DNA of 63,714 nucleotides, the filler included, from Perkinsus chesapeaki ATCC PRA-425 (taxonomy: Eukaryota > Protista > Perkinsozoa): NCBI GenBank assembly GCA_013115145.1. It is 6 parts of 6 records of this genome, joined end to end, with 100 filler letters (N's around TTAATTAATTAA, not from the genome) between each part and the next. Parts side by side here need not be neighbours in the genome. Positions count along the whole stretch, not along the records: positions 1 to 31,478 come from JAAPAO010000420.1; positions 31,579 to 57,572 come from JAAPAO010000514.1; 4 more parts are not named here. The stretch is one strand, 5' to 3'. Position 1 is the first letter of the stretch. Every line of letters begins with the position of its first letter. This document shows, one piece after another, positions 561 to 57,572 of the stretch. The translations under genes were made by a program, and so were the position numbers. Under the pieces are notes generated by a model. That model was not told the origin of the DNA, did not search any database, and saw only the letters and a program-made list of their open reading frames with translations.

Positions 561-3500
561 TCAACTCTCTACAAACTCTATTCCAGCTGAGGCTAAGCTG
601 TGATACCTGTGTAATTTAGCGACAGCTACTTCCGCTTCATTCTTCGGCAACGGAGTCGTCAACTTCAATTTAGCCGCCAGTGGAGGTGCTGTGCTCCCCA
701 AAGATTCAAATACAGGCGATAGGCCAGTAACCAGTTCCTTCTCGTCAATATGAGCTATAGAACCTGACAAACATAATCAAGGTACAGACAGAAAATCTTG
801 CTTACCTTGCTCATCTTGCATTTCCTCAACGCTGTTATCAGCATCATTCGACTCCACTGCCTGATTAGCAAAGGCCGCCATCATATTAGACTTTTGTACA
901 GCATCTGAAATGGTTGGATTTAGCGCGAGCCCAATTGATCGATTGGTTACCCTCATCAGTTGGCGGTTTGTTAGTCAGCATCATTTTATTAATGATAGCT
1001 TCAAATTCAGCCATCTCATCCCGTGTGTCTTCGCTGTGTCCAACGTGCTCGGATTTCTAACGCATGGTAAGGTTTACAAATTGATGCTGGAAAAATTGGA
1101 AAATACATGGAAATTCACGAAATTCCCGGAAAATTTAGATACTGGAATTTTCTTGGTGACAAATGACACTACAGCACTCCCGTTACTCTCTTGCTTAGCA
1201 GCCGGGAGTAGAAAATGACCACGAACTAGCAAAACATAATACTACTATCAAAAGTGTTGGTGAAAACCCCGATCCTGGCATATAAATTTATAACTGATCT
1301 TTTTTATCAGAAATGGAGTAGATAATTTTCACCGATGGAGATAGAATTTTTGATGTTGTCTGATTTTTTATGTTGCGTATGACTATTAGCCTTACTTTCT
1401 CATCACTGGGCTCTTCAACCTTCTCATTCTCTTCGTTATATAATAATGTCCGATCGCGTAGCTGAGAAATATTTTCCATTAAATGTTCAACATGACGGTG
1501 AACAAATAAATGGTGCGTGAAAATAAGTATCCACTGAGTCTTACCGCTTCCGTGGAGGTCAGGAATGCCTTAGAGGCTTTCTCAAGATACTCCTGGCCGA
1601 ACTGGTCCATCTGAAAAATACCGAATGCCGGGATCGAACTTGCGCCTTTTCATATGCGGCAAATCGGATAGCAAGCCATAACAGCTCTATTCGATACTGG
1701 ATGTGCAGCGGAGCGAAGCGAGACACTTTTTGTTATTGTATTATCTGAACACTTACAATCTCCCTTGCTTTTGGATGGTTTTCTCCAAGCTCTCGGACTA
1801 ACGTGCACACTCTAACATAAGATACTCCAAAATTTTGCAGCAGCGCAAATCTTGCCTGTGCGCAACATCCAATGCTTCCTCTGATTCGTCCGAGACTTCC
1901 GTTGCCTGTGAACCCAGCGACGCGTTCAATGCTTTGACAAATCGGTCAAGTAGCTCAACGTCACGGTCCAGTAAAAATGATATCTGAGATCAAAATGCGG
2001 GTGCCGGGAATCGAACCAGGGACCTTACAAATTCTCTATACTCTTCATCTCCCAGCGTGGCCTTTGCAAACTCTAGCATCTTGCCATTCACACTGCCGAT
2101 CTTTCTAGTCCATTCATCTTCGAGACGATCTCGTATAGACCTCCGCGTGACCGCCAATTGCCGTTGATACCTGAAATGATGGATTTTTTCTGACACCTCT
2201 AGCTGTGTAAAAACCTACTCCATTCTCAAATGTTTAACTTTAGCATTGTCTATTTCTTGCTGAAGACTCTTCACTTGCTCTCCAAACACCACCATTTCCA
2301 GCATCATCTCATCTATGTATCTAAAAAGAGCACTGACACTTAAAGTGAGCATTTTCCCGAACTTGAACCATGTAATAAAAAACAACAAGCGTATCATAGT
2401 CCAGCTATTTGCTACAAAAACTTCAATAAAGTTGAAGCATCATTCCCCGCCCCTGCAGAAAATATGAGAACGCTCTCTGTGAAATATCAAGAGGCATTGA
2501 TCAATATGCAATGATAGTTATTGTCATAATTATTGTGAGTTCCAACTTAGGCACATTATGTCGGGCAATCTAATGTTTACCACCTGCATCCTCTTACCAG
2601 TGGTTTGCTATAGAAATTTTTCTTCGCGAAAAGCTCGGTCGAGCTCATCTCACGAGCGAGGCTTGAAGTAGACGAATCTTACCTGGTCTCCAATCTTAGT
2701 CGATCAGCCAGGAATTCATTAAGGATTGGATGCCCCCGACCAAGCTCGTTCACATATTGCCGTGCTGCAGAATCCAATACAATTAAACTGCCAGATAATG
2801 GCCATTCCCATCGAGTTTCGAGCTCATATCTGAGTTGAGGAAATGCAAGATCCGGCAAGATTAGCAAGATTTGTACTCTAAAAACTGCTGCCTCTGTCGA
2901 CGATGCTTTGTTATAGCGGGCCATACACGGCTGCTCATTGTGCCAAGCTGACCTATTGCATATTGCTCAACATCATTGATGTCGTTTAGGGAATCTGAGA
3001 CGGCTCTGGATGGCAGCAGCATTTACGTCGCCTTACGCGCTCTCCTCAGCTTCTCCAGAATTCTGCCTTCCGCAATTTCGTACCTGATTCCATCTTGCAC
3101 TTCTGGAGAATTTCACAAGTCTAAAAGAGTCTCGGGAGGGGCAAAAACAGTTCCACTGAAACATACAGCGGTCGGAAATCCTATTGTTAAGTTAGATACC
3201 GTTCAGCCAGCCAGACTACTACTGGAAGAGGTAGTTGTATCTGTAGTTGGATTCTAGGCAACAAATATCTACTACTTGGTGAACTCAGTATCTTTAGGAA
3301 ATTGTCCAGCCAACTTACCTAGATTTCAGCTCCTCTTCGGCAAAGTTCAAGATCCCCGTAAGCTTCTGGGGAAGAGCCCTTTTGTATTTTTCAATCAGTT
3401 TGTGAACTTGGTATCTGGCTTGATCAATTGTAACGATATTCCCAATGTTCTCTATTTTCCAGCAAAAGTGTGACTCACGATTTTCTATGAAACGGTTGAT

Positions 3501-5480
3501 CGATTTAGGTTCCCGTGACAAATATATACATTAAACCCTGTAATAAATTTGCGAATTTTGGCACAAGAAGTCCCATATAAATTTTTTTAACGATTGCCCA
3601 TGATACAAAGACTAATCACGGGCTTACGGCGTGGCAGTCTTATCAGTCGATGAGGATTTCGTTGCACCCAGTTGATCGATTTCATACTGTAAGCCTTCCT
3701 GTAAGTCAACGAGCATCGTGTGGAGCTTCTCCGACAGCATTACCTGAAAACACTTTAAGAAGGGATAAATAAAGAGTGGTGATCTAGGAGGTGAATGAAT
3801 GTTTGAGACTCGATGGGCATTTATCTCGGAATGCTGAGATGACAAGGAAACCTACTCAGTCGATTAGGGAACGAATGATATCGATATAAATATCGTTATT
3901 AATAATAGTGATACAACCTAGATTGTTTGCTCCTCCTAATAAAGGTTATTGCTTACAGTGTGAGGTGTATATTTCCGGAGGAGTTTTGGGCCTCGGTGCT
4001 TTCTTTTCGCGCGACATGGATCAGGAAAGTACAAGTTATTTTCAGCATCTTGCTTTGCAGGATGATTTGAAATAAATCGAAATGACAAGTCCGACATGAT
4101 CTAATAATCGCTGTCCATTAATAATACAGATGATACAGAAGTTAGTAATTAAAGTATATGAAAATCATCACAGAAATACCTACACCAAAAAAGGGTACAA
4201 TTATATAAAGGTCTATTGCACTACTTAAGATTTGGTCAAACCTGTCACTCAACAGCTTACCACAGCAGGATGCTCCCCACCAAGCGACCTTGTATAAATC
4301 CTCTGTAGACTTTCGACCAGGTTGATATCGAGACCGCGCTGACAAAGATGAACACTACTGTCGCAGGTACTTGATGAGGATTTTTAATGTCCGTGTTGAG
4401 AATAAGCTTAATGTAAACGACATCCTAGAGCCTCCGCCATTTTACACGTATCACTCTCGTGAAGAGTGATGTTTCAAGTACTAACAATGAAGAGATTTCG
4501 TACTGTGCAGAGAGCCTTGAAGCCTCCAGTTAAATGTATGTTACTTTTCAGTCGAACGCTGAACTGGCCTTAGTTCTACTCAAACCGATGTACACCAATT
4601 CTTCATTCACCAAAGCAAAATTGATATTTGCTAAATACTTAATATTAAATGATACAAAGCTTGATATCCCCATTGGCCATGGGAAGTCTCTTGCCAACTG
4701 GGTTATGCAGGACCCTCGTCAGGAGCAAAGACGAAGATGAAAGCCCACCTCTTTTGCACAAACTATAGATGCAACCTGTAGTGCTTCAAAGCTGAGGTTA
4801 ACCTATAAAATGATTTTTGAAGATACGCCTGGTGGTTGCTCTTGCCCAGCTCGGATTCCTTAACCTCCGACTGAGATAGAGCCCGACAGCTATCTCGGGT
4901 AGAGGTGGGCAAACCTCTTCAGACCAACGGAAGCGCTCTGAAAGAGGGAGGTATGGGAGTAGGAAAATGCTGGATTATACCTTTGTTCTTCTTATATTGT
5001 TTTAATCGTGCCACCGCCTGGAATCGAACCTGGGTCGTTTGCATGGAAGTTAGCCCTCCCCCTTGTATGAGCTTACCACTGTGAGTACAATATGTGGTGG
5101 CTGTCTTATTGGATCATCTAATAGCTCATCTGCACTAAGTATCCGATTATGGAACATTGAATTGATATTATGGGATGATTTAGTCATTGTGATGATACAT
5201 TCTACTGACAATTGCGCACTATAAAGAATATCTTCCAACGATCGAGCATCTTCTATTCAAAATCCCAGGAGTGTTTACTAGTTCCACGTATAATGATTTC
5301 CAGTGCTCATTCATGAACATTCATTCTAGGTTGAAATTTTCAAGGTAATAGTAAAAAAGCACAGCATGAGCCATACTATATTTGGTTACGAACGCTACCT
5401 GAGTTCGTGTATACAAATGCTTTCATTGATATCCGATGAAGATAACAAAGCGACTGTATTTCCAGTGCCCTTATTCAACA
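561..5480 (-). CDS. Multi-exon hypothetical protein gene (possibly more than one gene; 5' end uncertain)
   Basis: Exons join in frame across short GT-AG introns (e.g. TDE|DAVQKSNMM..EQ|GSIAHIDEKEL; EEYREF|ISFLLDRD; AREI|MDQFGQEY). No family motif recognised. Confidence 0.55.
1619..1660 (-). pseudogene. Degenerate tRNA 3' half (Ala-like) at the 3' end of intron 1611-1756
   Basis: GCATATGAAAAGGCGCAAGTTCGATCCCGGCATTCGGTA followed by TTTTTCAG: B-box/T-loop plus a T-run that also serves as the acceptor pyrimidine tract. Confidence 0.5.
1984..2028 (-). pseudogene. 45-nt intron composed of a tRNA 3' end
   Basis: GTAAGGTCCCTGGTTCGATTCCCGGCACCCGCATTTTGATCTCAG: T-arm, acceptor 3' strand CACCCGC, discriminator A, TTTT. 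Read-through hits a stop codon; splicing restores a long open frame. Confidence 0.7.
5009..5055 (-). pseudogene. tRNA-Gly(UCC)-derived 3' half inside intron ~4938-5076
   Basis: CTTCCATGCAAACGACCCAGGTTCGATTCCAGGCGGTGGCA: TCC anticodon loop, variable loop GAC, T-arm and acceptor strand; no D-arm or 5' strand. Confidence 0.65.
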
Positions 5481-5639
5481 GCGTACATTTCATCACGATC
5501 AGCCCTTATCATAGTAGTTGTCCATGCCGATGAGTTGCTGAGAGAGAGCCACCAGTAGGATTCAAACGCGCCTTCTCGGCCTGCACGCCGGTTTCAGTAA
5601 CGCAACCGCCGGCCAGAGTTGGTATTAATGTTACACCAG

Positions 5640-7119
5640 TCATGCTCGTTGTATCCAAACAATGCCCGCGTATCCAAAACCTTCACAGTGCGCTACCGTG
5701 TCACTGTTAAAATAACATCATCGATTACATGACACGCTATTTCGCGGTTTCCTATCGACTGTTCTATGCAGCTTTCTATCACTTGTGCCACTATGCCGCA
5801 CGACACTTCATCAGTAATGCTCTCAGAGCTACACGACACTGTGTCACTGCTGTCCCACTGTGTCGCCGCGCTCACACTATTTGCTATTATCTCATCAACA
5901 ACGATTCTACTAAGCGTCACCGAGCAACTCTCCGAAACTGATGACCATTCCTCTTCGTCGTCAACCCCACAACTGTACATGGAGAGCAGGACTGTTCTAA
6001 CCGCCGTTCGTAATTCTGTGGCGCGCGACTTTAGCTCTTGTGCTGCGCTATCGTACACGTAAGCGAGGTAAATCGCCGTGTACTTCTTAGTCACTTTACT
6101 AATAGAAGACTTCATAATCAGTTTGGTGATGAGCTTAGGAACATATCTCACGTTCCATGCACGCTCATACACCCTTGACAAAATGGATAAACATGAATCG
6201 CTTCGCTCCGTCTGAATATCCACTTCTTCTGGAATGACTTTTAGAGCTTCCACTGGCTTTTTCGTAATGGTTCTCTCAGGCTTCGGTGATGGCTTTGGTT
6301 TGGGGACTGCTTTCTTGGCGGGAGATGGTGAACGTTTGCCTGAGGTAATGTGCTGCAGGACTACACTTTTAAACTAGTAGGCGTGGCGTTCCTGTGGTAT
6401 TATTGTATATGTTATCAACGAGGAAAGACACTAAGGGTGATAGAAGGATAAGGACTAGTTGGAGAGCTATTTCTCGGATTTCGAAAGCGAGTTGAGTTCC
6501 TCAGCCGATCAGAGAGATTTCGAGGCAGCAACCTCTGAATCAGGGCAAGCCCCGTCAGCCTCTTTGACAAAATGTACAGGCCAATAATATTTCTGAAAAG
6601 ACCAATAATACGGTACTGCCACAATCAGTCATTTTTCCTATAAATCAAACACTTTATGGAAGCTGCTGGATTTCATATTCGGAGTCTCTTCAACAGTCAT
6701 ATTTCCCACTTCTTATAATCATCATCACCCGTTCACTTTTGGCATACACGAAAGCTCCAGAGCTTTAACACTAAATTCTGTAAAGGATTGATATGCCCAA
6801 GTGGCGGCGGCTCACACCAGCAACTCTACCCATGCCATCTATACACTATTAAAGCCCTACCTCGTTTGTCGGGGCTCTCCGGTGCCTTGGGCTTTACAGC
6901 ACGAGGAGGAGGAGGGGGAGGAGTCTCCTCTGATGTAGCACAGCTGAACACGTCATCATCGATCTCCACTGTAGGCGACTTTGGAGGCGGCTGAGGCACG
7001 CAGGTTCGATCCGAGGGTAAGGTACTTGGCATACCTTTTTGGGCCTGCTCCAGTTCATTAGAGCATCTCTTCCGACGCCTAATAGCCTTCCTGGACGGCT
7101 TCTTGTAAATCTGGCCCAT
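5640..7119 (-). CDS. Hypothetical protein, basic/Pro-rich N-terminus and acidic Ser-rich C-terminal region
   Basis: ORFs 6826-7119 and 5693-6253 on the same strand with exon-like segments between them. Confidence 0.55.
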
Positions 7120-7229: not shown

Positions 7230-7766
7230 GACTCCATATTAGGATTGGCATGTCTCAACACTTGAACTTCGACTACTCAGCTCGTACAGAAAGCAAATTA
7301 TACTAGCCAGATGAGTGTTAGAGACAAAACTCACAAAAAGGTTGAGGTATTTCCCGTGCATTGCGTACATTTTCGAAAAGACAATGAAGAAGGTGCAACT
7401 TTTTTACAAAAAGTTCGCGACTCGCTGAGAGCTCACCTCGTCGATTTGCTTCCGGAACTCCTCAGCTGTTTTGCCTGATATCGAAGTGACATAGATACCT
7501 TCCAGAAAATATACCTTGCTTTTCCCGCATCGCTCCGCTAAGTTTCATCATTTTTTTTCCTGACCTTCTCGGCAACGGCGGCAGGATCGGTGGATCCAAC
7601 TTGTGTTTACGTAGTGGTAGATAGTTATCCTGGAAACGGAAGAATCGGTATGACACGATTTCGGAATTTTCCTTACTTGCCATTCCCAGTGTGTCATCAT
7701 AACCCATAGCTCATCCTCAAGCTTATTATTTTCGATACGCGTCCGACCAACTCGGTGTGGCATTTT
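7230..7766 (-). CDS. Small multi-exon hypothetical gene
   Basis: Short minus-strand ORFs with splice-like boundaries; no family recognised. Confidence 0.3.
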
Positions 7767-8256: not shown

Positions 8257-11200
8257 TCAATAAACCGCGCACTTCAAATGCGGTGTTATGCCCTTAAGCT
8301 TCTCAGGTTTCTCAAAGTTATACTCGCTCATGTACCTGTCACATCGATCTAATCCGACTTTGAGATCTGTCAAACTTTATCAGCGCTCGGCTGGGACCGT
8401 CACCATTTGGTAACATGCTGTCACACTTTTCAAACATCTGTTTAGCCTTCTGCCAGCTGCCGTAATTATAAAAATGGTAACTGAAAAGAGCGGAGCGAAG
8501 CAGGTGAAAGATGAAGCATATTGTTAACTCTTACGCTTGTCTCCATAAAGTCCTGAAGTCTAATGTAAATCCCTCCTGTACAAGTTGAATATCTTTATCA
8601 ACTTCGAATAGCTGACAAAGAGAGGGTCATCTTGCGAGTTGAAATAAATTTGAAATAAGCAAGACTTTGGCGATGGCAAGGAAATTTAAACGTCTTAACG
8701 GAACCATAATTAAGTCTTCCAGTCGGGACTCACATATTCCAATGTGTTCTCGGCAAGCTCGCTGTCAGGTACCTCTGCTGGTAGGATGATCTTGCCCAAA
8801 AGATGATCTAACTCACAGTGTAATGTCGGACTCTTCCATATTAAGTAACGATGAACGATAAATTAAGGGAATTTACACCGTCACTTGACACCGAGATAAC
8901 TTCCGACGATCAACTTCTCTCTTCATCTTTGGGCAACACCACCACCGGACAAGATGACGATTATGTTACCACGTGATAGCCCAACCACCAGAACACAGTC
9001 TACTGCTACCCCTTAAAGGTCATTGCAAAATACGCGAGAGAAATGTGGTCTGGTTAAAAACCACAATAAAATAGAAATAACGGGCTCATAGAACACCCTA
9101 TCATAGCAATCCATCATTGTTGTTGTTCTTACTGTCAGGTATATCGGGTATATTATTATTCATATCGAATGTATACAGCTCATACTTCATCTCCGTTTTA
9201 GGCTCCTTACCAACTTCACCAATCATAACCTAATAACTTGCCCAACTCTGGCAGTGTGATCGCTGTGAGCTGTTGTTTAAACTTCTGCGTTTATTATTCC
9301 TATTCTTAAAACAACAGTTCTGTCTAGAGACCGAAATAATGCTCTTTGAAGCTCTTTGCCATAAGCACGCCTACTCAGTGAGCTTTGATCGGAAGTTTGT
9401 CTCAGAAGTAGAAAGGCAACTCATACTAGTGAATCATACAGCGTTGTGAACACCGCATCGACGAAGCTCAAATGATTTCTCATTTACTCGAAAATTTTCA
9501 AGTGATCTCGAGAGCGCTTTAAGGAGTATATTGGTAAATTGGAACAACCCAAGCATCATCACAGTCGTCACCTCATCAACAAGTCGACATCTCTCCCTCA
9601 CTTTGCCACCAAGATGCTCCATAACCGCACCGGTGATTAGTATATTAACTCCATAAAGTGGTGTGGATCTAACCTACCAATCAAAATCTCAACCCACCAA
9701 CACTCACACAAACCCCAATCGAAATCTCTAAAGATTCACTCAACGAAGAATCGCAGTTCGTTTTTTAACCTTCGTACCTACTTGGTCATAACAAAGATAT
9801 TTCTGTCACGCTCAGCAGCATTCTTTGGAATACAGCTGAGAGTGAAACTCCTATCAGAACTTGCCACTCCAAAGCTCTTGAATGATATTCTTTATTGATC
9901 GGATTAACATTTTAGTACAAATCGAAGAGAGCTTTGTTGATAGAGGTATACGTGGCTCACCAGAGAGTAGGCAGCACTAACATGGAATCCGATATAAGTG
10001 GCATCAATCTTCTGTTCGCTGCCAATAGCACCTACTTCCCATAACATACGAAAACCGTCACTCGCCACGAAATTACCTTCAATGCTCCATCCACAATGTA
10101 GAGCTACTCCGGCATCTACTTGATAGGCGAGCCCAAATTTTGGTATCAATTTCGGGTGTTTTGCATATGCTCGTAGATCACCAGCCCGGCGAATTTCAGC
10201 GACTATTTTGATGCAACCAAGCAAGGCTTTCTCAGCCAAATCTTGCCAATCTTGCTTTTTCTTAACGCTCCGTTCAAGACCAGCAAAAGAGCTTAGCGAC
10301 TCCATAGTGGTACTGAAATCGTTATAAGCATTTAGTGGCTCGAAGGAGAGTACCGGATTCTTCAGCGATAAGCACGAACAGAAAGTATGATGATAAATGA
10401 CGTAGACAACTGATGATGAAATCTAGGAAGGCGACTGGAGGACGGGGAGAGCATTGGATTCAAGCAAAACCCAAACCGACACGATTGTCTTAAATTCAGA
10501 GTAAGCTCACTACTTACCTCGGGTTTGCCAAGCCGGTAGCGTCTTTAGTGGCTGCTGCAGTGCTAACTGAGGAATAAAGAATCATTAACTTAATCATTTT
10601 GCATCCCATAAAATTCACCATCTTACTTCGAGCCTCCGTACCCCTTGTCTTCCCCTTAGATGATAACAGCATCATCTGAAACAAAATCTTGCAATCTTAC
10701 ATTTCCTCAACGCCACTTACTTCGCTCAACTCCGTATCATCTTGTGGTAAGAGCCACGTGAGCAAGAAGCTATCGCCAAGATTCTTATTAGCTGCACCCT
10801 CCCACTCATCGGCGCAAAGGTGAACTATTCTGGCTATCTTATTGACAAATACCATCACCTATATTTCATAGAAGATTTGCCATCACCCGACAAAGTCGAT
10901 TCGGCGCATCGAGTTTAAGATGTATTCTCCGACAACTCACCTCTTCAAGTAGGCAGTCTGTAGTGCCGCCAAATTTACGTATGTCACAATAGGCGTAGAC
11001 TCCTTCGACCTGAAACGAGCCAATCAAAGGGGGCGCTCGGCTAAGTGGCGACTTGACATTTAAAACCGTATAGCAAATCCGGCCTGGCAAATACCCATAT
11101 CCAACTGCGGCAGAAGATAATACAGTAATAAGTAAGGATCGTGCATTTTCCTTAGGCAAATCGCGAAGAATTTTATTTCTCGGCCAATTTTGAGAGTTTC

Positions 11201-17780: not shown

Positions 17781-17799
17781 ATGGAATTCTAACTAGGCC

Positions 17800-19169: not shown

Positions 19170-20830
19170 TCAAACTATACTAATCATCATTAATTAGGGC
19201 CATCATGAGAGTGGTCCTCAGCGAAACCGTCGGGCCGTTTCTCCTAGAGGGGCGGAGCGATGTAAAATATACAGTGACATTATCTTCATATGCCCTACAG
19301 CGGGAGTGACTAAGGATCAAAAAGTTACAATGCCAACCACCACCGAATAAAAAAACATATCGATTGCAGGTGCAAGTCCTGGCGTATGCTCCTCGGAAAA
19401 GCGCACGTCTCCTTGGGATTTTGTAATGTTCTCTACTACGTCTCCTCGGTAGAGATGGTATTCGGTTGGTAGAAAAATGTGATTAAAATGAATGGTATAT
19501 AGTAATAGCCAGTGATGACAGTGTCCGGCTTAAACGTTCATAAAAAACTACTGGTCTTAATTAGCAGCAAGCTTACAGAACACCTTTAACAAGTGTCCCT
19601 GTTTTTATGCCACTTTACATGGAGACCGCAGGTTGGTGGCCTGTATGTGGTCAAAGGATACCAAATGCATATAAACCTCCGTCAAGAGGAGCATATGCTA
19701 CCACTTATACATCAGCTTATGATGTTGAAGATCAAGTAGGACTAATGACCTCGAATCAACCTATATAGTATCTTTCAGCCTCGAGGTCCGTATCCTCCAG
19801 GATACGCAGGTCATCTGCCAGCTATTCGCCATAAATTTGGATACAGTATGCCGGCACCAGATGTCAATATTACCGGAATGGATAAGCGAACGTAAAGGAT
19901 AGCAAATACCCATTTTGGAAAGATTCTCCTTGAGAAGACCACAAGACTATTAATGCCGCGTTCTTAGTACTCTTTTTTATATCAGATCATCAGCAGCATA
20001 TTAATCAATATTAACATCGCAAATCTGGCTTTCGGAAATTTCGCGTTTTTGTTAAATTCTTCCTCATCTGCTATTTGTTATTGTTAACTTTCCTTCTAGA
20101 AAGGTTTGTCTTTCGATCAGATTTGGGCCCTCACTTGAATTCGCTTCGACACCCCTACCACAAAGAGCTTTTGATAGAAGCGTATCAGTGCCACAAATAC
20201 TATGCCATAAGGAAGGTGCTCGAGCCTCCAAACCAGGTAAGGAAAATCAGCAAGTAAGACGTTGAACCAGCTTTGCTTCAAACTCGATCGCGATGCTTTT
20301 TGATTCGGCTTTAGTATATTATTTCTTCGTCCCTGAAGTACAAATGATCGATGTGGCTCTAATAATGAAAAGCTCCAAATCACTGTCAATAAAATATGTT
20401 AATGCACATTTATAGAATTTTATAACCTTTCGTGGTGGTTGTAATATATTTCTTTTTGAGCAGTCAAAGCTCGATCACTGATGTGAGGCCTAGAATCAAT
20501 GTATTGCATGCCTCCTTTCAGATCACATTTGCTATCGACAATTCCGTATTAGTAACCCCTCGAGGAGTATCTTTCTGAAAATTTAGATGCTTCACTGTTA
20601 AGTATCTCCGTGTTGCACTTGAAGATTTTTTCCAATATTTTCCCAGAGGATTTGTCTACGAAATATTTCCCGATAAAATTTTCCTATTTTCGATTACATC
20701 GTCCGGATGATGCAACGGGTTGAATGGATAACAGACATTATATTTTTCTTAGATTTAACAAGATCATTCAGCATGGCTCGAAGCCTCAGAATTGATACAC
20801 AAAGGTTGGTAGCATTAAGTCGCTGCGGAG
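19170..20830 (-). CDS. Hypothetical multi-exon gene
   Basis: Exon-like frames (PKWVFAILYVRLSIP|LADDLRILEDTDLEAERYYI) between short introns. Confidence 0.4.
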
Positions 20831-27500: not shown

Positions 27501-30500
27501 ACCATTTGATGATATACCCAAAATTTTGATAATTTATCATGTCTGTTTAGTAGCATAAAAGGTCGAAATGAAGTAGCATTATAAATAGGTCTCTTTCTTC
27601 CTCATCATCATGATCATATAATTAACTTGACCTGGAAATGCTATAGTATAAAATCTCCAAATTGGTTTTTGTAATACCGCAGCAGTTCTTTCTACGTTCA
27701 GTTACCCACACAAGTGTTTTCAACAGTAACCTTCGGATAGCAGCCGTGTCTGGTGGGCTGCTTATGATTTACCAACTTTCGATGGGTTTCTAGATTGCCC
27801 TCGATCAAACTCAACGCCTTTATCCCTGATGGTCTCTGAAGACGGAAGATCTGTTGTTGGTGTTTGTGACATGATGATCTTAAAAGTCGATAAGTAGGTC
27901 TAAATTGTTGGCTTATTCGGGGAACCTAATCTCACCAATCTTTGATGAGATGAAGTCTTTAATACTTTATCACTATATATAAAACTATCGTGCAACCCCA
28001 CGAAAGTTTTACTACTGCAAGTCTGTAGTATTAACTTAGTGTTTCGGAATTATGCGACACCCCGCATTCTTACTGGTGAATAAGTAGTGCTGGCCTGTGC
28101 TGTAGTAAACAATAGTAGTTCAATAACAAAATTAAAGTTATGCAATAATAAGTAATAAAAGCGGACAGTGTGAGCTCCAGTTCCTTGCCGAAAGATACTA
28201 CTAGCTTTGTAGAACTTGGCTGAGCTTCGTAGATATTTTGAAACTCGAATTGATATTTGTCGTTTGTTTCAGGTACCGTTGGTCAGCCCATCGAGTTGCT
28301 ATACGTGGTGGTGAGTCTGACAAAGATGCCAGCAAGAGGTGGGGATCTATAGAACGCTAATATGATAGGTATGGTAGGTATGATGAGAGATGTAGGTTGA
28401 CAGAGGATGAAAAAGATGGCAGAGGGTCTCTTATCGAAGATCCTCCTCCACCAGGCAGCATTGTGAGATTCTCATCGTTGGACAAATTGACTTTGCACTC
28501 TACTTCCAACTCGGCAGCGATACCTGTGATAGTCTTTAGCTGAATCCTCAATTTGCCTTTGAGTCAGTTTGGTCAGGATTACTTGCTCACAATCTGCTCA
28601 TCTGACATGAGCTCTCTGGATCCCCCCTTGGCCTATTAAATTCGCGACATTCTCATGACTATGGAGTATTTCACTTCACAAACACTTTTCTGATCGTGAA
28701 TTCACGTGACGAGATAGGAATCATTATTTGCAGGTGCCATCGCCACAGCTTCTAAGATTCACTAAATCGTTGTCTGTCTGGGGCACGACTGCTCGAAGGA
28801 TGACATTCAGAGGAATGGATAATCTTCGGCCTACTATAGGTGAATTACAAAGCCTCTATGTGATGAATTATTGATTGTGCAATATCGCCTTCCTATCAAC
28901 CATACTTAGTTCATAATAAAATTAATATAAATTTATATTTGTCGCAGTCTGAGACGGCTCATACTGCTTGGAGGCCTCCTTTTGCCTTGTTTGAAAATGT
29001 CCTGTAAAAGATTGCTATTGTGTGTTGCTCAGTTGATAGCACTCCTTTGCCTCCAGTGGCTCCAATGAGGCGGCCACCATTGAAGGGGATCGATAAGGAC
29101 TGTCTCGGTGAGAAGCTCGATAAATTTAGCATCTTTCCGATATCCCCTTGGTGATCTCCGATGAAAGCTTTCTACAGTATTCTGATTCGCATTTGTGGAT
29201 TGGTTTAGTAGCGCACAGAACCACTAAGTCGTCCCATGTTACCTTCTCTTGTGGGATGTATAATACTGAAAATCTTAATTCGAAGTGAATTATCGAGATT
29301 GCAGACATCACCGACCGTGGTCTCTGTGAGAGTGCCTATTCGACAGGTATGATAACATCGACAACCTGCCTATTGCCAACGCATCTCAACATAGATGGTG
29401 ATGCGGTTGTCTTACTATCAGATCCTATGGGAAAGCTATGGGTAAGAGACTAAGTAGATTAAACAACTACGCAGGAACTGCTCGGAGGTTTTTGATAATT
29501 TTTAATGCTAACAGAAGTAGTGGTTGCGCTAGATTGAGAAAGGAGACAGCGCACACAATCCAAGATACCCCTCGTGCGCGTATTTCGTCACATCACTCAT
29601 ACAAGATTATAAAAAGATTTTCGAGTAACACTTCATTCGAATGGTGAAGTTGTTTTCAGTTCTTTCCGCTCGGAACAAGAAATCAAAATCCTTCGGCGAC
29701 CGAGAAGAGACAGATAGTTGAAGTCGATTGCGAAAGTGACTTTGTGTAAGTGATGATGACTACGGACATTAGTTTATTATTTCCGATCAGTTATCCGTGC
29801 CCAACTCGACACCTCATCCCTATTGGGAATGCTGGTTATATAATATGCATTGGTGAGTGTGGTGCACCATCCCAGCTGCTCAAGATTCACCACACGTGAG
29901 TCCTTCAGCAGCTTCGCTCCGCTGAGATTGTTTTGTCAGAGATGACAGGAAGGGATTGCGCGTCCATATAGCCTTGCCTTGGCCACCGATCCCTACAGAC
30001 CGTCCATTGCTGCCAGCTCCTATCATACGTATCTGGTAAGCCTGTGAACTCCAACAACAAGAACGTTCGAGATCATCACCCACCTCGGACGTCGGGTGAA
30101 TACCTCCCAACCGCGGCTCCCCTTTAAAGTGTTTTCTCGCATTTCTGCCATGTAGAGAACTCGTAATTTGCTTTGGAGCAGCAAATATGGTTCTCGTGGA
30201 TTTTTGCCAAAGCATGTTATTCAACGACACGAATGATGCATGGTCTCATGAATCATTATAAGATTCTTAATATGTATCAATAATGACCCCGTTGTCTCTA
30301 TAGGACTCTTTTGTGGCCCATTTCCTTGTCCAATTCTTATGACTCTATCATGACAACTCTGTTTCTGTAGAGATATTACTGAACTGGTAGTCGAATATAT
30401 GGTGTAATACGTCATCAATTTGAGCTGCTATTTTCTATCATTTCTTCAGTGAGCTGCCAAGAGGCCTGACAGATGTGAATGACGATGACACGAGTTTCCC

Positions 30501-36653: not shown

Positions 36654-37297
36654 GTCAGCTGTTTAAAAAAATACAACATGCATCGCTTCGCTCCGCCGGC
36701 AGACGATTCGACGGATAAGTTATGTGGATGTTGCTTTACCAGTGATGATGATTAGTCTCGATTCATCATTATTAAGGTTTCTGTTAAATTGCATTATGAA
36801 AGGATAATTGAGTTTAGTATCAATTCTTGGGGCAGAATCTTAAGTTGAAGCTAGTCAGATGCGTAATAGGTTAGTTTGCGGTGCGTTGATAAAGGTAACA
36901 ATTTTCGTTCTATTATCCATCCAGGAAACCTAGTTGGCTATCCTAGTTGTTCCTCGAGTTCTCCCATGTGTCGCCAATCGACTGAGATCGAACTACATTG
37001 AACAACCTATTTATTAGGGTGACTGTTTTGGTGATACGTATGGCGTTTGAAAGCTCTTGAGAGTGACTGAGTAACGGTATTCGATGAGGTTAACGAGAGA
37101 TCAAATTTTAAAAAATTCAGAAGAGAATCGGTTATAATGTCAGACTTGACCGTAGTTCAATTCTATTTAAATTGCATACCATTTACTTGCCGTTTATTAT
37201 TTAAGTAGCTTTACGCAGCTACCATGAGAATTACTTGATTGTCTATCCTCATTATGAGCCTCTCGAGCTGTCACGGAACATTGGGCAGCAACAATGC

Positions 37298-41299: not shown

Positions 41300-44200
41300 T
41301 GATAATGGTAAAGCTATGTCACCGTCAGTGTTGAGTTCAATACAGTAAGCTGAAGCTCAGTTCCCGAACATTGCATTCCTCTCATTTTTCAAACTTTCTG
41401 TTCCGGGAAGGCTTCAAGAAGTTGAGACGAGAAGGCTCGTATTTGCCCCGTTGAGGTTAATTCCCGCTGGTTTTGCATAATCTGTTTTATGAAGACTAAA
41501 TCTCCATGGAAGCGCATTCTACAAATTATTCACCGGCATCGAAATTACGTAAATCTGATAACCCTAATGTTACCTATAATCCCTCTCACTCTCGACTTAT
41601 TATAATAACTAAACTATTAAAATTTTACCACCATTAGCTTCTGCTCCTCGGATTAAGCATCTTGGAGTAGTTGTTAACGAACCCTTCTGACTTTTTAGCG
41701 ATATTTGGAAAATTGTTGGTAACCGCGTAAGTCGTAAGCCGGAAGCATTGTTGACGAAAGCTGCATTGAGGGGCTGGCGAAAGTATGTTAATAGGAAAAG
41801 GCTTCTCTGGAGAAACAGGTATTTTCGTGGCGCGTGACTTGAGCTTCGACTCGGCCTTATAGGATTGTCGTATCAGCTAGAGGCCGGTTCCGGTATAAGC
41901 GTGATGTGATGCTTGGATGGTATGGTTACACTCACAGTGAGGAAATGATGGAATTGAGAAGAAGGCGAGAGGAGTTTATTAAAATGGTGAGGTGGGATTT
42001 ATTCAGGAATTGCAAATACACAAAGAGACTGCAAAATCCACGTAGGCTCATCTCCGAGCAATTTTTATGTCGGCTCAGTTCTGGATACTAAAGCTGGAAC
42101 TTCGGCAAATAATATATGTTATTGTACTTGTAGTTTGTAATTGTTCCTCACAGGTAGCCGATAGACATCACCATTTGGCTGCCTCTGCGATGTTCTCGGC
42201 TTGGGTGTCGTTAGTGTATCGAGGAAAAATGAAGAGGTTACGAAATAACAGAGCCGAGGCTTATGCTGTTCTAAGGATATTGGAAAAAGCATGGCAAATG
42301 TGGCAACAGTGAGTGACGGTTTAACGGCGTGAAGCTCCAAAGGCGTGAACGAACTTTCCATGATGGAATATCTAATTTTCGCTGAGATGGAATGTCAATG
42401 TCGAGGTTTCGGAGTTCCGATCAATCTTAAGTGTCTGCTGTCGGTGTATCAGTTATACGTCCGACCGTACCCGTCTGGCATCCCTTGAATGTCTTTGTGA
42501 GCATCGGTGGGCTCAAAGGACTAAAGAAGAGTACATCAAAAGGTGGCAGCAAGCAGCGGACATGTCGGCACGAATTAGGAAAATTACGAACAATTTCTCA
42601 ACCAGAATGAAACAGAAAAGAGGAATTAAGGCGCTGCGGAGAGCAGTATTGCGATCTCGCCACATTGAGGAGATTAGGAGACAGATTTTGTGTGCAAAAG
42701 CGCGCGCCGTGGTGATCGATTTGAGAGAATGGACGCGAGAAAGAAGTCACAAGAGAATGAATAGGGCGTTGGCGAGAAAGATGTTGACCATTTGGCGGAG
42801 TGAAATTAGAAGAAAAATCAAGCTTGAAGATTCTCGGCATATTCTTGAATCTTTGAGGTGCCGTCGACTGAAGCGATCGGCGTGCGAGAATTGGCTTGAC
42901 CTCACCAGAAAGGAAATAAGCGCTGCAAGATATGCCGTTCGTAGGCTGTTGGAAATTGTGTGGGCTAAATGGACTTGCACGGTGAAGCATTCTTGCGTGT
43001 TGGCGGCCTTCTTAACCTGGCGTGAGAGGCTCGCCCGGGTTCCGAGGGAGCTAGCGCGGGTGCGGCTCAGGAGGGCATTTGGCGGCTGGTTGCTGAGATG
43101 TGTTGATATGAAACGGTCGGAAAGGCAAGGCATCGAGTGTCGAAATATGCACGACAATGTTATGAAATTATCGGTGTTGTTGAAGTGGCAGAGGCTTCGA
43201 CTTTTATGGGAAGTGGCGCGGAGAATGGCATCAGGCGGTCTGAAGAGGAGAGCGTTGATTGGATGGAAAGACGAGATGAAAATACGTAAATTGGAGAAAA
43301 GACGGGATAGGAAAATTGGTAGGATCTTAGCGGAGCGAAGCAGCCGAATTCATTTTTATGGGTGGCATGATCTCTGCAGAGTGAGCGATTTCAGAAGAGT
43401 GTTGGAGTTTCGAAGGAAACGGAAATTTATGAATTTATTTCGAGATCTTGTGGAAGATAGAAAATATTGGAGACAGCTCGATCGTGGAGCTGGTGGGAAA
43501 TATTTTACGAAATTGATAGGCGCGTCAATGAGGGGAATGCAGATGTGTGTGGCGTGGCACCGACGGGGCCGGGAGGAAGCGAAGAGGAAGCTTGCAAGAA
43601 GTTTATGCAGGAAATGGTTCGGAAAATGGATTGAAGTTTTGCCGATTTTGCGATGTGAAAATAGCCGGTGGATGGTAGCGGTTAAGCTTTCGTGTGAGGT
43701 GTTGATGGGGAGGGGGTTCAGAGGGTTGAAGGAATTTAAAATGAGACGAATGTCCGAAAAAGATCAAGTGAGGCGAGCTCAAGTGGTAGTTATGAAATTG
43801 AGAGCACTACAAAGTTTGGCCATCTGGAGGGGATGGAAGAATCGTAGGAAGATTCAATGGCAGGTAAGCTGCTTCCGGGTAGGAGTATCCTTAGCAGTTC
43901 CTCAACCTTTTCATTTGTTATTTTATTATTTTCCGAATCCTCGTGGAATATGCATCAGTCGGTCGGTTTTCGGAGGTTTGTTTTTTTGTGCAACTCTCGT
44001 ACGGGGAATTACCTTTGGACGGGTATTGAAGGAAAACGCTGCAATGCTGAAGGAATTAAGTTTCATTTGTTGGTGTTGTTCTAATAACAGAGGTCATTCC
44101 AAAGAATATTATTAGATTTCAGGCATAAGTTGAATAATTATTATTTAGATTCCTCAATAAGTCGATGCGTGCTTTGTTTAAGGTCTCGTCTCATCCTCCC

Positions 44201-46000
44201 TTAAAGTGTTTCTAACCTTTTATGAGCAACAATAGTATTATGCACTCTTTACTTGCAGATTGAGCCATGTTAATCGCATATTGACTTTGCCTAGTAAACT
44301 TACCACCTTACTATTACGCCACATTCTTCCTATTATTACTTTCCTTTATTGATGTAGTTCAGGTCTGGCAGATTAAATCTTCTACCATCGCTGCGGCCGG
44401 GGACGCCCAGAAGCTTCGCTCCACTTTTTTATATTGGAAAAATGATTACCTGCATTACGCCAAACTCAAACATATCTTGCGGAACATCGCCACGAAATTC
44501 AACCTTCTTATGGAATGGAGGAGACTCCTCGTCGGTGTTGAAATAGTGAGAGGATACAGGGAAAGATTGGAGGGTATCTTAGGTCGAAGGAGGGTTCAAA
44601 CGCTAAGCCGGTAAGCTGTAGAACTACAAATAAATTGTCATTTGGACATACCTCTATTTTTCGCGGTGCGTTCCGTCCCGTTTTCAACGGCGCCAAGTTA
44701 ATCTTCTAAAAGTAACAATTGAATGAAAGGTTTCAAAGGACCTTCGCTTCCAGTGGTTCCTCGGAACAGTATTCCCTCCGGTAGCGTTCAATGCCTCTTT
44801 ATATCATCATTTTGATTCCTTCCCAAATTTAGAACAGTTTGACTCAACGAGTCGTCTAATGGATGATGATGTTTTGTAAGATTATCCTTTCCTTTGAATC
44901 TTACGTCTTTTTGGCCATTCGCCGTCGTACTTCAGATTTTCAGATTTTTTAATCTCTACCGAGAGGCAGTCACCGACAGTCTCATCGTTCGTTATAATAA
45001 TTCTCGCGCGCTACTTCACTGGGCGGATAATCTTTCCTCGCAAGTTTGGCGGTATTGGGTAACCAACAAGAAGTGTTGTGTGCCACCGCCCTCGCCCCTT
45101 TGCAGGTTGAGTATCTCAACATTAGGAAAAGCTCACAACTTTTGCGCCGCAAATCAGATGACTTCCTCAGAGGTCGATTAACGTGTAAAATTTTTCGAGT
45201 GTTCCGGTCATTTTCGTCGAGCCAGAGGACATGCCGGCTCGCTGTTGGGCGAATTAAAGCCATCAAAGAGGTAAGGAGTGGATCTTCTTTTTCATTTTCC
45301 ATCGCTGCAGTTCGGAGAATCCGAGAAAAATGAGCTCTAAGCATTTTGGGTTATGTTATCTTCGCATACTGAATTACATCTACGCGTTATACGTACATCC
45401 CCACACTGGAGCTGTTACCCTTCATCAACGACAACATCATCATCATCAATAACAACAACAACAACAAAAACTTAACCCTTAGTGATTCCTCGCCTCATCG
45501 CCATACTTTTCTTCGACACTTCCAATTCGTATTTTGGCTTTTTGTTCGAGCATATTTTCCTGTCCTGAACTGTTTGCAGGTTCGCCTTCTGCGAGGATAT
45601 CTCATCTGTTGGTCCAAATCTTATGACAGAAATCTACGTGTGAAAGCAGGACTGGAAGGTTTTGAAACTTCCCGATCACGAAGAACACAACTTGGCTGTC
45701 TCCTCCAATGGCGGCAAATGGTTCACCAAATGTGCGCGCTACGGAATGTCGGAGATATCTTGAAGAGGAGAATTCTGCAATTTGGTTTCGTGGCCATGCG
45801 GAGGGCGATCGAAGAGATGCGTCGGCAGGTGCGCCAATTTTGCCAGTTTCTCATCGACTTGCCGTTTTAGGAGAGCATCACTGTTAAGGTTGCTTACCGT
45901 TGGCGTCGCTTCGTTCGGCACAGACGTCAAGAGCTCCAGGACGAAGCTAAAAAGTTGAATTCTGAAAGGGAAAGGGAGATTTGGTCGAGGCTTGAAGAAA
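41300..46000 (+). CDS. Sfi1-like basic Trp-repeat (centrin-binding) protein
   Basis: 517-aa ORF 42562-44115 and neighbouring exons show Arg/Lys-rich repeats ending in W (RRAFGGW, RALIGW, RKWFGKW, RIHFYGW). Confidence 0.6.
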
Positions 46001-53942: not shown

Positions 53943-56420
53943 TTAAGATGATACAGCTGGTCTGAGTTCTTTTGCTAGTTCCTCTTTTGTAGCCATTCTA
54001 GGATATCCAGTGGTAAAGTAATCATGCTTGATGATATCACCACTTGTTGGGCGAGCGCAAGGGTTCAACATCAGCATACCTTAATAACAAACATTAGTTT
54101 TTATGGAAGACAATTCCTGAAACGAAAAGTGTGTAGCTGGTAACTAACCGATAGGCTAACTGGTACGATATAGTCGTCTTCCACTTACACACCACATGAT
54201 ATTCATTTGGCAATCATGGCCAGGAATGTTAACTGGTAGATTCGGAAACCAGTTTTGCCCAAACAAGTTTATGTCACTAAAGCTCGCCAACCGACTTTAT
54301 CTATTCACATTCCAATTTAATATCTTATTTCGTACTAGTCTCGTGTCTTACTTTTCAGCAACTCATCCAGTTTTTCTGATTCCTTGCACGCATCGCCGAA
54401 CAGATCTCGAGGCCAGTTCTCCGGCGGGGCCAAATACGCAAATTCATGAAAGCTCGGTAGGCTCGATGCCTCCGGCCAGATCTGTTCTGAGGGCGTGCCG
54501 AGCAGTTCAACTATCGCTTTGAGAAGTTCTAGCTCGGATGGTACCTGTCACATATATCAACAATTTCGGGAACATTTGCCGACCTCAAAAAGTGGGCTTC
54601 GTCGCTTCACTGTGCTAGGCCGACTTCTCTCCCCTCGAGGAAGCATCTCTGCCATCAGTGTACCGATTGACCATACGTCAACAGCTGGCGAATAATATGA
54701 TGATTCGAATAACAACTCTGGTGCTCGGTACCAAAGCGTTACAACGTTGAATGTCATATTACCACCGAAGGATCTTTTAGATTGGCTGAAGCAACCCTGA
54801 GGAGGAAAGCCACTTAACAACAATCAATAGGTGAATTTAGGGAAGGGATCTATCTATGTAGCCTCAACGGAATGTGCTCATCAAAGATCATCATCAGAAG
54901 GGTTGTTCCTGATGAGTTGATCTTGCAGAAAAAGGATTCATAGTGCGGAAGAGATGCCACATAGATCTAAGAACGAAAAAACAAAAGTTCATTACTTCTG
55001 GGAGGACCATCTGCTGAAGCTCCATGCCTTCACAGTTCTCACAGTAAGTGATGATATAGAAGAGATAATAAAGAGTAGTGATGAATAATAAATGATCAAA
55101 CAAGACATGTTCAACTGGGCAGCAAGCGATGATGAGAAATTTCTATTGCCACTTTGAGCATGTTCTTGGCTAGTTCAGAGGTTCAAGCAAAACTCTTTGA
55201 CAGCTAAAAAAGGGAAAATTCGAATAAAGCCGAAACTAGGTCAATTAAGATTGATATAACCGAATCCTTACTGGAGGCGGCTGGCCAATCTGACGTGCCA
55301 GACCGAAATCGGTGAGGCTGAGTGTGCCAGTTGTTAAATCACATAGGACATTTCCCGATGAAAGATCTCGATGAACAAACCAAGCATCATGAAGAGCCTT
55401 CACACCACACGCTATTTGATAAACCATACATTTTATACAGGATGCTGGCAAAGTTACATTACGAGAACCTGAAAACGAAAATGTAATACATGAAACGCTC
55501 CGCTCCGCTGTATTCTTACTGAGCACTTTCTTCAAATCACAATGCATGAATTTCATGACAAGCGATAACTGAGGCTGCTTGTGCCGCGGTGTTGCCGTTG
55601 AAGCTGATTCCTCCACTGCTGTTTCATCTTCATTAATTGATGCGAATACCTGAGAGCCGAAGAAAGAAATGGTACGGATTACTGGTAATCAGTGGAACGG
55701 AGGACTCAGACATGATAAGACAACAAAACAGGATATGATGAGATAAGATGGTCTGGAACATTGTGAGCAGCACTGCTGCAGCAGCAGCAGCAGCTGCTTG
55801 TCGACAGAAAAGTTATTGCTCCTATCATCTACTCCGCCTACCTCACTTTAATAGAGAGTAAGAGTATTCCATCAGATTGAGAGTGTAGATAATACTTAAG
55901 AATATATAATAAATATTAATATTTTGTAGATATAATAAAAATGACATATGCCTTCTGCTAATCAGGTAACACTTAACTTGTGGATAATGTGCCACTTAAT
56001 TGGTATTTCTATGCTTTCAGCCACCTGTTGAATCCTCGCATATTAACTCACATCAACAAGAGACATAACATTCTCACTGTGGATGGCTTTCATAACTTTT
56101 ATTTCGCGAATACACGTGAAATGGATACCGCCGATGCCTCGTCCAGCACCTGAGAAGAAAGCAGAGTTGAGCTATCATGTATCCTGCATCCTTCAACCTA
56201 AGATACCTGCTGATGCAGCCTCTGTTTTAAGCCTCTTGATAGCTACATCTTCACCACTTGATAAATCTTTCGCCAAAAATACTTTACCGTACGTTCCCTC
56301 ACCTAACGAAAATGCAAAACATGTAACAATCTTTAGCGGAGCGAAGCATATCTTACTAATAAATTTCTCTATTCGATATCTCTTTCTTCCTTTAAGCTCA
56401 TGATGACCCTCTACTATCAT
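53943..56420 (-). CDS. Cyclin-dependent kinase, CDK7/MO15 (MRK)-like
   Basis: [13 protein letters not shown]; [14 protein letters not shown]; [18 protein letters not shown]; [19 protein letters not shown]; [11 protein letters not shown]; [15 protein letters not shown]. Confidence 0.88.
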
Positions 56421-56451
56421 ACTAACCACAACTGCCAATTCAATGATACAA

Positions 56452-56495
56452 TAAAAACGCAACATGCCGGGATCGAACCAGGATGGCTTCATCAA
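56452..56495 (-). pseudogene. Degenerate tRNA 3' end in the 140-bp FEN1-CDK spacer
   Basis: CCTGGTTCGATCCCGGCATGTTGCG followed by TTTTT. Confidence 0.5.
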
Positions 56496-56560
56496 CACTA
56501 ATTATGAAACTCTTAACATTAGCTTCTTTTACGCTGCATAATCTTCAAACTTAACTCGTA

Positions 56561-57572
56561 TCATTTTTTGACTTTTTTCGCGGCCGCTCCGCCAGCTGAG
56601 GCACTCGCTCTTTTACGACCTCCGGTACTTACGCCATCTAAAAATATAATTCTCAGCGGAGCGATGCACTACTATTTAAAATAAAAAACACCGAATGAAA
56701 ATCACCCTACAGTTATGCTCTTGACAAACTGACCTCCCATTAACAACCCACCTATCAACGAGTGGTACATCCGTCAGAAAATGTCATATATTTCTCGCGC
56801 GCCACGAAAATCGGAAAAACGTTAAAGACATAATCGAGAGCAAACAAATGGCAATTTGATGAGGTATTGAACCACAGCATATATCATGAGCACTGCAAGG
56901 CTTGCCTAACATGCCGAGGGGAACTATTTAACTGTCATGCGCCAGAACTGAATCATCAAAGAATAACGTAAGGCACTTGGTAGCTGACGCGTTAATAAAA
57001 TACCAGCTTTCCAAAATTTACTTTTCTTGGTCTCCTTTTTGAACGGGTCGAATTTATCTTCCTTTTTAATGGCAGGTTTTGTAGTTTTGAAAAACGTATC
57101 CAACCTCATCTGTGTCTTGGCTTTCTTACATTTCTGTAATCGACTAATATATCTAAAATAAAAAATGCCTCCTCCCGGGATCGAACTCTCATCTTACTTG
57201 TCCACCCTATCTTCAGAGAACTGATTCTCATCGACCAAGAACTTCTTCAAGCCCTCATAATCAGGAGTCGGCCACTTCAATTCTGCATTTTCTCTCTCCA
57301 CCACAGGAGCGTCCAAGAAATACTCTCTTATCTAACACAGCCATGAACTGGTCCGAAATTATGGCCTTACTCTTGTGTAGTCTCCTTTTTGCCAACTCTC
57401 TGGGATTGTATTTTTGCTGTTATCCATATGCTCTAGGACTCCTTCAATGTTTTTATATTCTTTAATCAATTTGAAGGCATTGTTAGGACCTAAAAACTCA
57501 AGCAAGGTAATCGCGTTAGCGATTGGCGCGTTAAAATGTGGTAGGTCGAGCCGTAGAGGTTTCGAGGCGCGC
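56561..57572 (-). CDS. FEN1: Flap endonuclease 1, 3' part (truncated by gap)
   Basis: AFKLIKEYKNIEGVLE; SEDRVDKYISRLQKCKKAKTQMRLDTFF (PCNA-binding Q..LD.FF); basic C-terminus GRKRASASAGGAAAKKVKK*. Confidence 0.9.
57153..57197 (-). pseudogene. 45-nt FEN1 intron composed of a tRNA 3' end (Thr-like acceptor)
   Basis: GTAAGATGAGAGTTCGATCCCGGGAGGAGGCATTTTTTATTTTAG. Splicing gives the FEN1-conserved EDRVDK|YISRL junction. Confidence 0.75.

Follow-up and report, generated by a model that had tools for sequence, protein, structure and literature searches.

Extra-TFIIIC (ETC) B-box sites, like factor-binding sites derived from transposons, are repeat-derived, orientation-independent protein sites that lie away from promoters. 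We describe here a 12-mer that recurs in a window of 63,714 nucleotides from the clam parasite Perkinsus chesapeaki ATCC PRA-425 (assembly GCA_013115145.1); the window is the whole stretch of DNA that was analysed, in which N linkers join the contigs, and its DNA is intron-rich eukaryotic, with ~43% GC. The 12-mer is best written as the 5-base unit AGCGR in two to three tandem repeats, and we regard it as a real, probably constrained, repeat-derived word. From its sequence context we tentatively read it, with confidence somewhat short of even, as the core, kept by selection, of an old repeat of intron size (~50 bases), probably a protein-binding site. Unlike ETC sites, the 12-mer is not a B box, and no B box lies downstream on the same strand within 110 nt of any copy (0/11); an A-box plus B-box promoter or a tRNA-derived short interspersed element was rejected on that count.

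Introners, as presented in the accessible parts of PMC9860276 and PMC7789003, resemble the hosts of the 12-mer in being sequence-related, intron-sized units that are found in either orientation, in an alveolate, and as several families per genome. Unlike in Introners, most introns that host the 12-mer lack end-to-end similarity, and its coding copies show no insertion. Part of the Introner families have terminal inverted repeats and/or target-site duplications; around the 12-mer, arms of at least 8 bp were seen in 0/11 copies, and no clear target duplication was recognised. The introners of Amoebophrya carry inverted as well as direct repeats at their termini (accessible part of PMC7789003), and the Introner survey scored three Perkinsus species negative (the portion seen of the supplementary table of PMC9860276). 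Both motif-bearing introns of the CDK gene in the window are present in a diverged second copy of this gene. A second likeness is to MUSE1 of Podospora mitochondria and to ultra-short organellar repeats, in which a word of 11-12 bases has very many copies with little common flank (as cited in PMC7218506); unlike MUSE1, the 12-mer is nuclear and biased to short introns. In this small sample, MUSE-like empty sites numbered 0/2 in the diverged gene copy, and the coding copies were gap-free against P. olseni.

Several bacterial repeats of the REP/RAYT type carry GC-GNA-GC words at the loop, according to the accessible part of PMC2817692, and 14- to 17-mer forms of the word occur in hairpin repeats of prokaryotes and phages. 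Unlike in REPs, an enclosing palindrome is present in 0/11 Perkinsus copies, compared to 29/118 prokaryotic loci among the matches listed, and no Pfam match to a HUH tyrosine transposase was obtained among 13 long frames of the window. The wording common to REPs and the 12-mer may reflect convergence. GC-GNA-GC heptamers melt at 70-76 C for all four loop bases, and such mini-hairpins occur at the phage G4 origin, at RSF1010 ssiA and at N4 promoters, where they mark priming or promoter sites (PMC13037366, as far as its text was accessible). The 12-mer contains the heptamers GCGGAGC and GCGAAGC. Unlike the phage and plasmid examples, which are single sites read in single-stranded DNA (ssDNA), it has ~11 copies per 64 kb, its loop base is not free, and its sister heptamers are unenriched. 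The 12-mer is apparently undescribed so far: a full-text literature search gave no account of it in Perkinsus, although Perkinsus genome papers, supplements and repeat databases might hold one. The 13 papers listed as containing its letter strings appear unrelated, judging from their titles. In the accessible part of PMC13685798, P. chesapeaki figures solely as an outgroup.

The 12-mer recurs above chance

We found 6 exact and 5 one-mismatch copies of the 12-mer in the window, 11 in all. They are given below by coordinates and strand, together with the two host introns of the CDK gene and one weaker look-alike; sense and antisense refer to the mRNA, and the left- and right-flank groups are those defined by the flank comparison further below.

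1708..1719, plus strand: exact copy; antisense; predicted host intron on the minus strand, 1697-1756 or 1611-1756
6200..6211, minus strand: one-mismatch copy; sense, in a 226-codon stop-free frame; right-flank group
7527..7538, minus strand: one-mismatch copy with T at position 10; sense; predicted host intron on the minus strand, 7499- or 7475-7564; left-flank group
8490..8501, plus strand: exact copy; antisense, in a predicted 54-nt intron (8481-8534), with the acceptor end 9 nt on
19252..19263, plus strand: two-mismatch look-alike of the T-at-10 variant; weak member
29911..29922, minus strand: exact copy; antisense; predicted host intron on the plus strand, 29896-29939 (44 nt); left-flank group
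36685..36696, minus strand: exact copy with a third repeat unit; antisense to a plus-strand gene; right-flank group
43330..43341, plus strand: exact copy; coding, in a Trp/Arg-rich repeat protein; left-flank group
44413..44424, minus strand: one-mismatch copy; coding, antisense; KLRST compared to LLRSA in P. olseni, gap-free
55469..55519, minus strand: 51-nt host intron of CDK; spliced out in 2 contigs of run X7 (RNA by our guess), absent from CDK proteins
55497..55508, minus strand: one-mismatch copy; sense, in CDK intron 55469-55519; right-flank group
56303..56356, minus strand: 54-nt host intron of CDK; skipped by CDK proteins
56336..56347, plus strand: exact copy; antisense, in CDK intron 56303-56356; left-flank group
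56656..56667, plus strand: one-mismatch copy with T at position 10; antisense; left-flank group

Dinucleotide shuffling gave an expectation of 0.02 exact copies, compared to 6 observed (maximum of 1 in 100 shuffles), and of 0.16 copies with at most one mismatch, compared to 11 observed (maximum of 2). Order-5 Markov simulations (n=12) produced no exact copy, and chance was rejected as the source of the recurrence. When tandem arrays, the duplicated gene and the tRNA genes had been masked, the motif was the most recurrent dispersed 12-mer of the window, being present in 6 places, while the best unrelated 12-mers were present in 3. Its copies lie within or beside genes at a mean spacing of ~6,000 bases, and the preceding base is A in 9 of the 11; several copies carry part of a third unit. 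A simple extrapolation from this one window to a genome of 42-44 Mb would yield ~4,000 exact and ~7,000 near copies. A preliminary description of the window had already placed the word above chance, which the shuffles and the Markov runs bear out. All eight of its coordinates were right; it counted four exact and four near-exact copies, having overlooked those at 29911 (minus), 43330 (plus) and 44413 (minus).

Location and orientation of the copies

The motif is present in 2/4 short introns of CDK and in 0/3 of its long introns (248-465 nt). The 55469-55519 intron provides the type example of the intron-sized unit, which consists of GT, the motif, a branch-site-like word, a T-tract and AG. The introns at 1708, 7527, 8490, 29911 and 56656 were predicted from splice signals and frame continuity only, and those in the region 700-10000 stay predicted since no RNA run was listed there. 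The copy at 56656 is near the 3' end of a predicted intron (acceptor 56638), the last one in a gene that lies upstream of CDK and that we take to be FEN1-like. Thus, the earlier claim that most copies lie in short introns of unrelated genes holds for one host intron with RNA support, one confirmed by homology and five predicted ones; it fails for the coding copies at 43330 and 44413 and is doubtful for 36685, which lies past a stop codon, and for 6200 in its open frame. The gene labels that went with the claim fared unevenly, CDK being backed by Pfam and "cyclase" and "FEN1" having no Pfam support.

The copy at 36685 lies 31 nt past the stop codon of the plus-strand gene, within a 49-nt GT..AG candidate (36654-36702). 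That at 6200 is inside a 50-nt GT..AG segment (6174-6223) that can be aligned with the 55497 intron, and both an exon and an in-frame intron are possible there; the frame gave no usable homologue match in Atlas. The exact coding copy at 43330 encodes AERS and is collinear with ADRI in the P. olseni orthologue, to which it aligns without a gap. This copy would have arisen in place, judging from the alignment, and is less easily dismissed than the coding copy at 44413, which may be a chance match, since ~0.2-0.8 chance one-mismatch matches are expected per window.

The word was said to occur in both orientations relative to the mRNA, and it does: 4 of the 11 copies are sense and 7 antisense (P=0.55), with 2 sense and 6 antisense among the 8 non-coding ones (P=0.29).

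Flanks of the copies are partly shared

Anchored comparison of the flanks revealed similarity above letter shuffles on both sides of the motif, since the observed value was reached by 0/150 shuffles on the left and by 1/150 on the right. The right-flank group (6200, 36685, 55497) has ~10 bases in common to the right of the motif and can be aligned over 31-38 nt, a T-tract and AG closing each segment 26-28 nt after the motif. A short common left flank unites the left-flank group (7527, 29911, 43330, 56336, 56656). The word had been described as lacking shared flanks, and these two subgroups above shuffle chance contradict that. In an alignment of 10 host segments, column identity was 42% with the core alone conserved, and only the three segments of the right group aligned along the greater part of their length. 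Foreign contigs, from other places in the genome, aligned with positions 55477-55509 over 33 nt and with 56301-56347 over 47 nt, the latter with 4 substitutions and 3 gaps. A 23-base flank pattern had no exact match in metagenome contigs. Whether flank alignment would expose the core of a known repeat had been proposed as a check: the flanks are partly common, as for the core of a longer repeat, but that repeat is not a known one. Junction repeats of 3-6 nt, seen by eye at some junctions, do not go beyond the usual AG|G(T) overlap, which is present at motif-free introns too.

Retention in a second gene copy and the mismatch spectrum

Run X5 contains a diverged second copy of the CDK region (53943-56519), at a depth of 208 compared to 195, which may be an allele or a paralogue. 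Both CDK versions are spliced in contigs of run X7; the second one was not seen among the matches listed for run X1, and among 37 candidate stretches for CDK relatives in metagenome contigs none was confirmed. The second copy differs at 24/76 third positions and 11/40 fourfold positions, corresponding to a synonymous divergence of 27-32%. Its long introns are replaced and shorter, while its short introns can be aligned. In the 55497 intron, 4/44 sites differ and 3 nt are deleted, so that its divergence is below that of fourfold (P=0.044) and third positions (P=0.006), and the sole change inside the motif restores the consensus. No gap was seen over the 56336 copy, and the CDK motif sites are thus filled in 2/2 cases, a small sample.

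Non-overlapping matches with 0, 1, 2 and 3 mismatches numbered 6, 5, 5 and 32, compared to a background of 0.04, 0.36, 3.1 and 28. This sharp spectrum fits a core divergence of 5-8%, with no tail of decayed copies. At divergences of 14%, 16% and 25%, the probability of at least 6 exact copies out of 14 would be 0.057, 0.025 and 0.0005, respectively. Neutral decay at 14-25% is disfavoured because many more copies with one to three mismatches would remain. That a site is old and yet its core is sharp suggests selection, although the numbers are thin.

Hairpin potential of the word

The preliminary description had seen two overlapping GNA mini-hairpin heptamers in the 12-mer. At least one intact GC-GNA-GC heptamer is present in 11/11 copies. 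However, the two heptamers overlap in bases and cannot fold simultaneously, and T at position 10, a recurrent variant, abolishes the second GNA loop. Outside the motif, we counted GCGAAGC 5 times, GCGGAGC once, GCGCAGC 4 times and GCGTAGC 3 times, compared to order-2 Markov expectations of 6.3, 4.5, 3.7 and 2.9. Free heptamers are therefore at background level, and selection for the shape is disfavoured, as the sister heptamers should then be common. An enclosing stem with arms of at least 8 bp was found in 0/11 copies, and a significant folding z-score in 0/10 of the copies folded, the latter a weak result because nearest-neighbour models underrate such hairpins. With free heptamers unenriched, the second loop broken by T10 and no enclosing stem, the double-hairpin view is not supported.

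The score of left against reversed right flanks exceeded 2000 shuffles. An ancestral hairpin having these flanks as arms was rejected, as acceptor ends and A/T tracts make up most of the alignments and both arms are never found together in one copy. A known structured RNA was likewise discarded, with no Rfam match over any copy.

Longer forms of the word in prokaryotes and viruses

Scans of at least 122 viral and at least 120 prokaryotic loci inform on contexts of the longer word, not on its frequencies. Among the matches listed, the 14-mer continues as NGC in 52/106 distinct flanks of viral contigs, compared to a background of 8%. The prokaryotic loci listed contain 117 extra GNA heptamers, compared to 39 expected, and 29/118 of them have enclosing arms of at least 8 bp; the arm-pair background of 2% was taken from the window, which is richer in AT, and is too low an estimate of chance where loci are GC-rich. 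The prokaryotic and phage likeness may hint at the nature of the parent element or be convergence. A long hairpin repeat family that encloses the 17-base form was observed in gut Clostridia, Bacteroides and Bacilli (L134, L136, L161, L164, L173, L175, L189), and three other loci (L141, L157, L191) resemble integron attC sites by eye.

Discussion

If the 12-mer is the selected core of an intron-sized repeat, a mobile unit would have entered or made short introns in either orientation, and purifying selection, weakly indicated so far, would have kept the core while the flanks drifted under splicing constraints. A putative double-stranded-DNA-binding protein with repeated recognition units would read the duplex within gene bodies. 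New sites might occasionally be created by point mutation in exons whose encoded protein tolerates the change, as the single case at 43330 suggests. A role in the organisation of chromatin, elongation or replication along co-oriented gene clusters would be a guess. The preliminary description preferred a DNA-level signal to a splicing signal, and a strand-independent explanation does fit both orientations and the coding copies; the "factor site" and the "mobile-element relic", two of its options, are probably both partly true. Descent from an intron-sized unit is favoured by the partly common flanks, the foreign contig matches and the other repeat families that occupy neighbouring short introns in both orientations; selection is favoured by the sharp mismatch spectrum and the retention in the second gene copy, and a reading of sequence instead of shape by the unenriched sister heptamers and the missing arms.

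Several points weigh against this reading. All motif counts come from one ~64-kb window with 11 copies. The left and right shared flanks never occur in one copy, and part of them could reflect convergence at branch sites, T-tracts and acceptors, although present-day splicing does not explain the flanks of 36685 and 6200, because the former is antisense to its gene and the latter in an open frame. The few foreign matches of 33-47 nt could be due to chance, given thousands of cores. Terminal repeats, a target duplication or an empty site were not found for the copies of the 12-mer, and mobility is thus not demonstrated. The comparison with the second CDK copy used 40 of 201 difference rows, with rows assumed to be complete up to 56235; for the 12 bases alone, conservation relative to synonymous sites was not significant (P=0.07-0.12). 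Retention age is demonstrated for one copy (55497), while for the second (56336) there is only the absence of a gap. Finally, chance would account for a single exact coding copy at a level of roughly 1-2%.

The word could instead be a neutral or nearly neutral relic, the now functionless GC-rich core of one among several old Introner-like or MITE-like families (MITE, miniature inverted-repeat transposable element) that would have made or invaded short introns, conspicuous merely by being GC-rich amid AT-rich flanks. We consider this possible but unlikely. It would account for the shared flanks and intron-sized units, it is in line with the presence in short introns of three or more further module families, and it is favoured by the 14- to 17-mer forms in prokaryotic hairpin repeats and the viral NGC continuation among the matches listed. 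However, a relic should have left a tail of copies with two or three mismatches, which is absent; the second gene copy retains the motif at low intron divergence, the exact coding copy involves no insertion, and P. chesapeaki, P. marinus and P. olseni all count as Introner-free in the accessible part of the published survey (PMC9860276). Clearly less probable than the relic is an origin by copying and patching, in which the repair of double-strand breaks, through templated insertions or short template switches, would have carried short modules from locus to locus and made mosaic introns, the 12-mer being a frequent donor. Pol theta produces templated insertions (accessible text of PMC11292364), and such patching would explain the mosaic flanks, with a left group, a right group and no copy having both, as well as the presence of modules in open frames (6200, and 10249 of the CAAGAT family described below); exact dispersed 14-mers and 16-mers are in modest excess (54 compared to 26, and 8 compared to 1.4). 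But patching leaves unexplained why one word has 6 exact copies when unrelated words have at most 3, and it explains neither the gap-free coding copy nor the sharp mismatch spectrum.

Slightly more doubtful still is a signal in ssDNA, in which the word, folded into a GNA triloop that might include tandem G.A pairs, would mark sites of replication, repair or transposition. The exceptional stability of GC-GNA-GC heptamers and their occurrence at sites of priming and at promoters in phages and plasmids (PMC13037366, in the part accessible) would suit it, as would the intact heptamer in every copy and the commonness of the longer word in prokaryotic hairpin repeats among the matches listed. Every loop base gives a stable fold, though, and yet free heptamers are at background; the overlap of the heptamers, the missing stem in 11/11 copies and the insignificant z-scores in 10/10 (the latter a weak point) also argue against it. 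We regard as very improbable an RNA-level splicing element beside the branch site of very short introns. Positions do follow a pattern, an AG coming 28 nt after the end of the sense copies at 7527 and 55497 and the acceptor AG 5-17 nt after the end of four antisense ones, but the non-coding copies occur in both orientations (2 sense and 6 antisense) and coding copies exist.

To return to the selected core, a bolder form of this reading, which we think improbable, if somewhat less so than copying and patching, would make the 12-mer a genome-wide address word of gene bodies, seeded by an intron-making element, with a core matching a prokaryotic ssDNA hairpin loop, and now recognised by a protein of its own, which would space out landmarks for chromatin or replication along clusters of co-oriented genes. 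Were this true, introns, with their B-box relics and other modules, would be a scaffold for DNA-level signalling in the sister group of dinoflagellates. Perkinsus is a phylogenetic neighbour of the dinoflagellates, a group in which little is understood of gene regulation and chromatin, and a selected, orientation-independent word in tiny introns offers a concrete bait for a candidate reader protein. The several module families suggest that many short Perkinsus introns are built of repeats too old for Introner surveys, which bears on intron origin and retention. Should the 12-mer prove to be a neutral relic, repeat catalogues would gain no more than a minor entry.

Other intron modules

In a second dispersed family, GTTGAGGAAATG precedes a run of CAAGAT units; its members lie in either orientation and mostly in predicted short introns. 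Seven copies were aligned, one of them apparently in an open frame:

790-835: CAAGAT family
2828-2880: CAAGAT family
10228-10270: CAAGAT family
10680-10724: CAAGAT family
12388-12432: CAAGAT family
33979-34025: CAAGAT family
34572-34620: CAAGAT family

A third family has GTATCTT and AAGATAC arms (56152-56208, 33112-33170, 37862-37912 and 32905-32945; 4 aligned). Its member in the CDK intron at 56152-56208 matches 7 contigs of run X1 and 14 of run X5 that come from elsewhere in the genome. This longer, multi-copy intron repeat is a better candidate for an old Introner than the 12-mer. Non-coding runs of GGAAAATT or TTCCCG-like sequence, noted by eye at 1080-1150, 17320-17380, 17660-17720, 18810-18860, 20620-20690 and 33350-33390, are possibly a further intron module family.

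Seven fragments of a tRNA T-arm/B-box are present at 1628, 2004, 5017, 17067, 56467, 57175 and 57695; several make up most of a 45-nt predicted intron, and 6/7 are on the minus strand, as are the local genes. Three identical tRNA-Gln(TTG) genes lie on the plus strand amid minus-strand genes, with unrelated flanks (8016-8087, 12234-12305 and 16440-16511) and spacings of 4218 and 4206 bases. The accessible part of PMC3706591 describes >500 tRNA gene copies and tRNA-targeting Dada transposons in P. marinus; a Dada footprint was rejected as the source of the 12-mer, since the target words given there do not match.

Neighbouring genes and intergenic words

The kinase exon of CDK is 100% identical to P. 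chesapeaki FOL47_008221 and 84% identical to its P. marinus and P. olseni relatives. The public model FOL47_008221 (53946-57430) joins the end of the upstream gene to CDK and bypasses the true CDK start near 56422, a start that matches P. marinus. The Trp/Arg-rich repeat protein that contains the coding copies (42376-46050) has a Trp spacing of 23-33 residues and is 46% identical to P. olseni FOZ60_007428. It had no Pfam match, no longer forms of it were found among 7992 candidates, and we presume it to be Sfi1-like.

TGCATGC-like words are clustered in intergenic stretches (14490, 52760, 53260, 53810, 59020) and resemble the upstream motif of apicomplexans. A tandem duplicated gene (49116-49972 and 51617-52493) has copies that are 81-92% identical and lie 2.5 kb from each other; a tandem array of 35-base units separates them.

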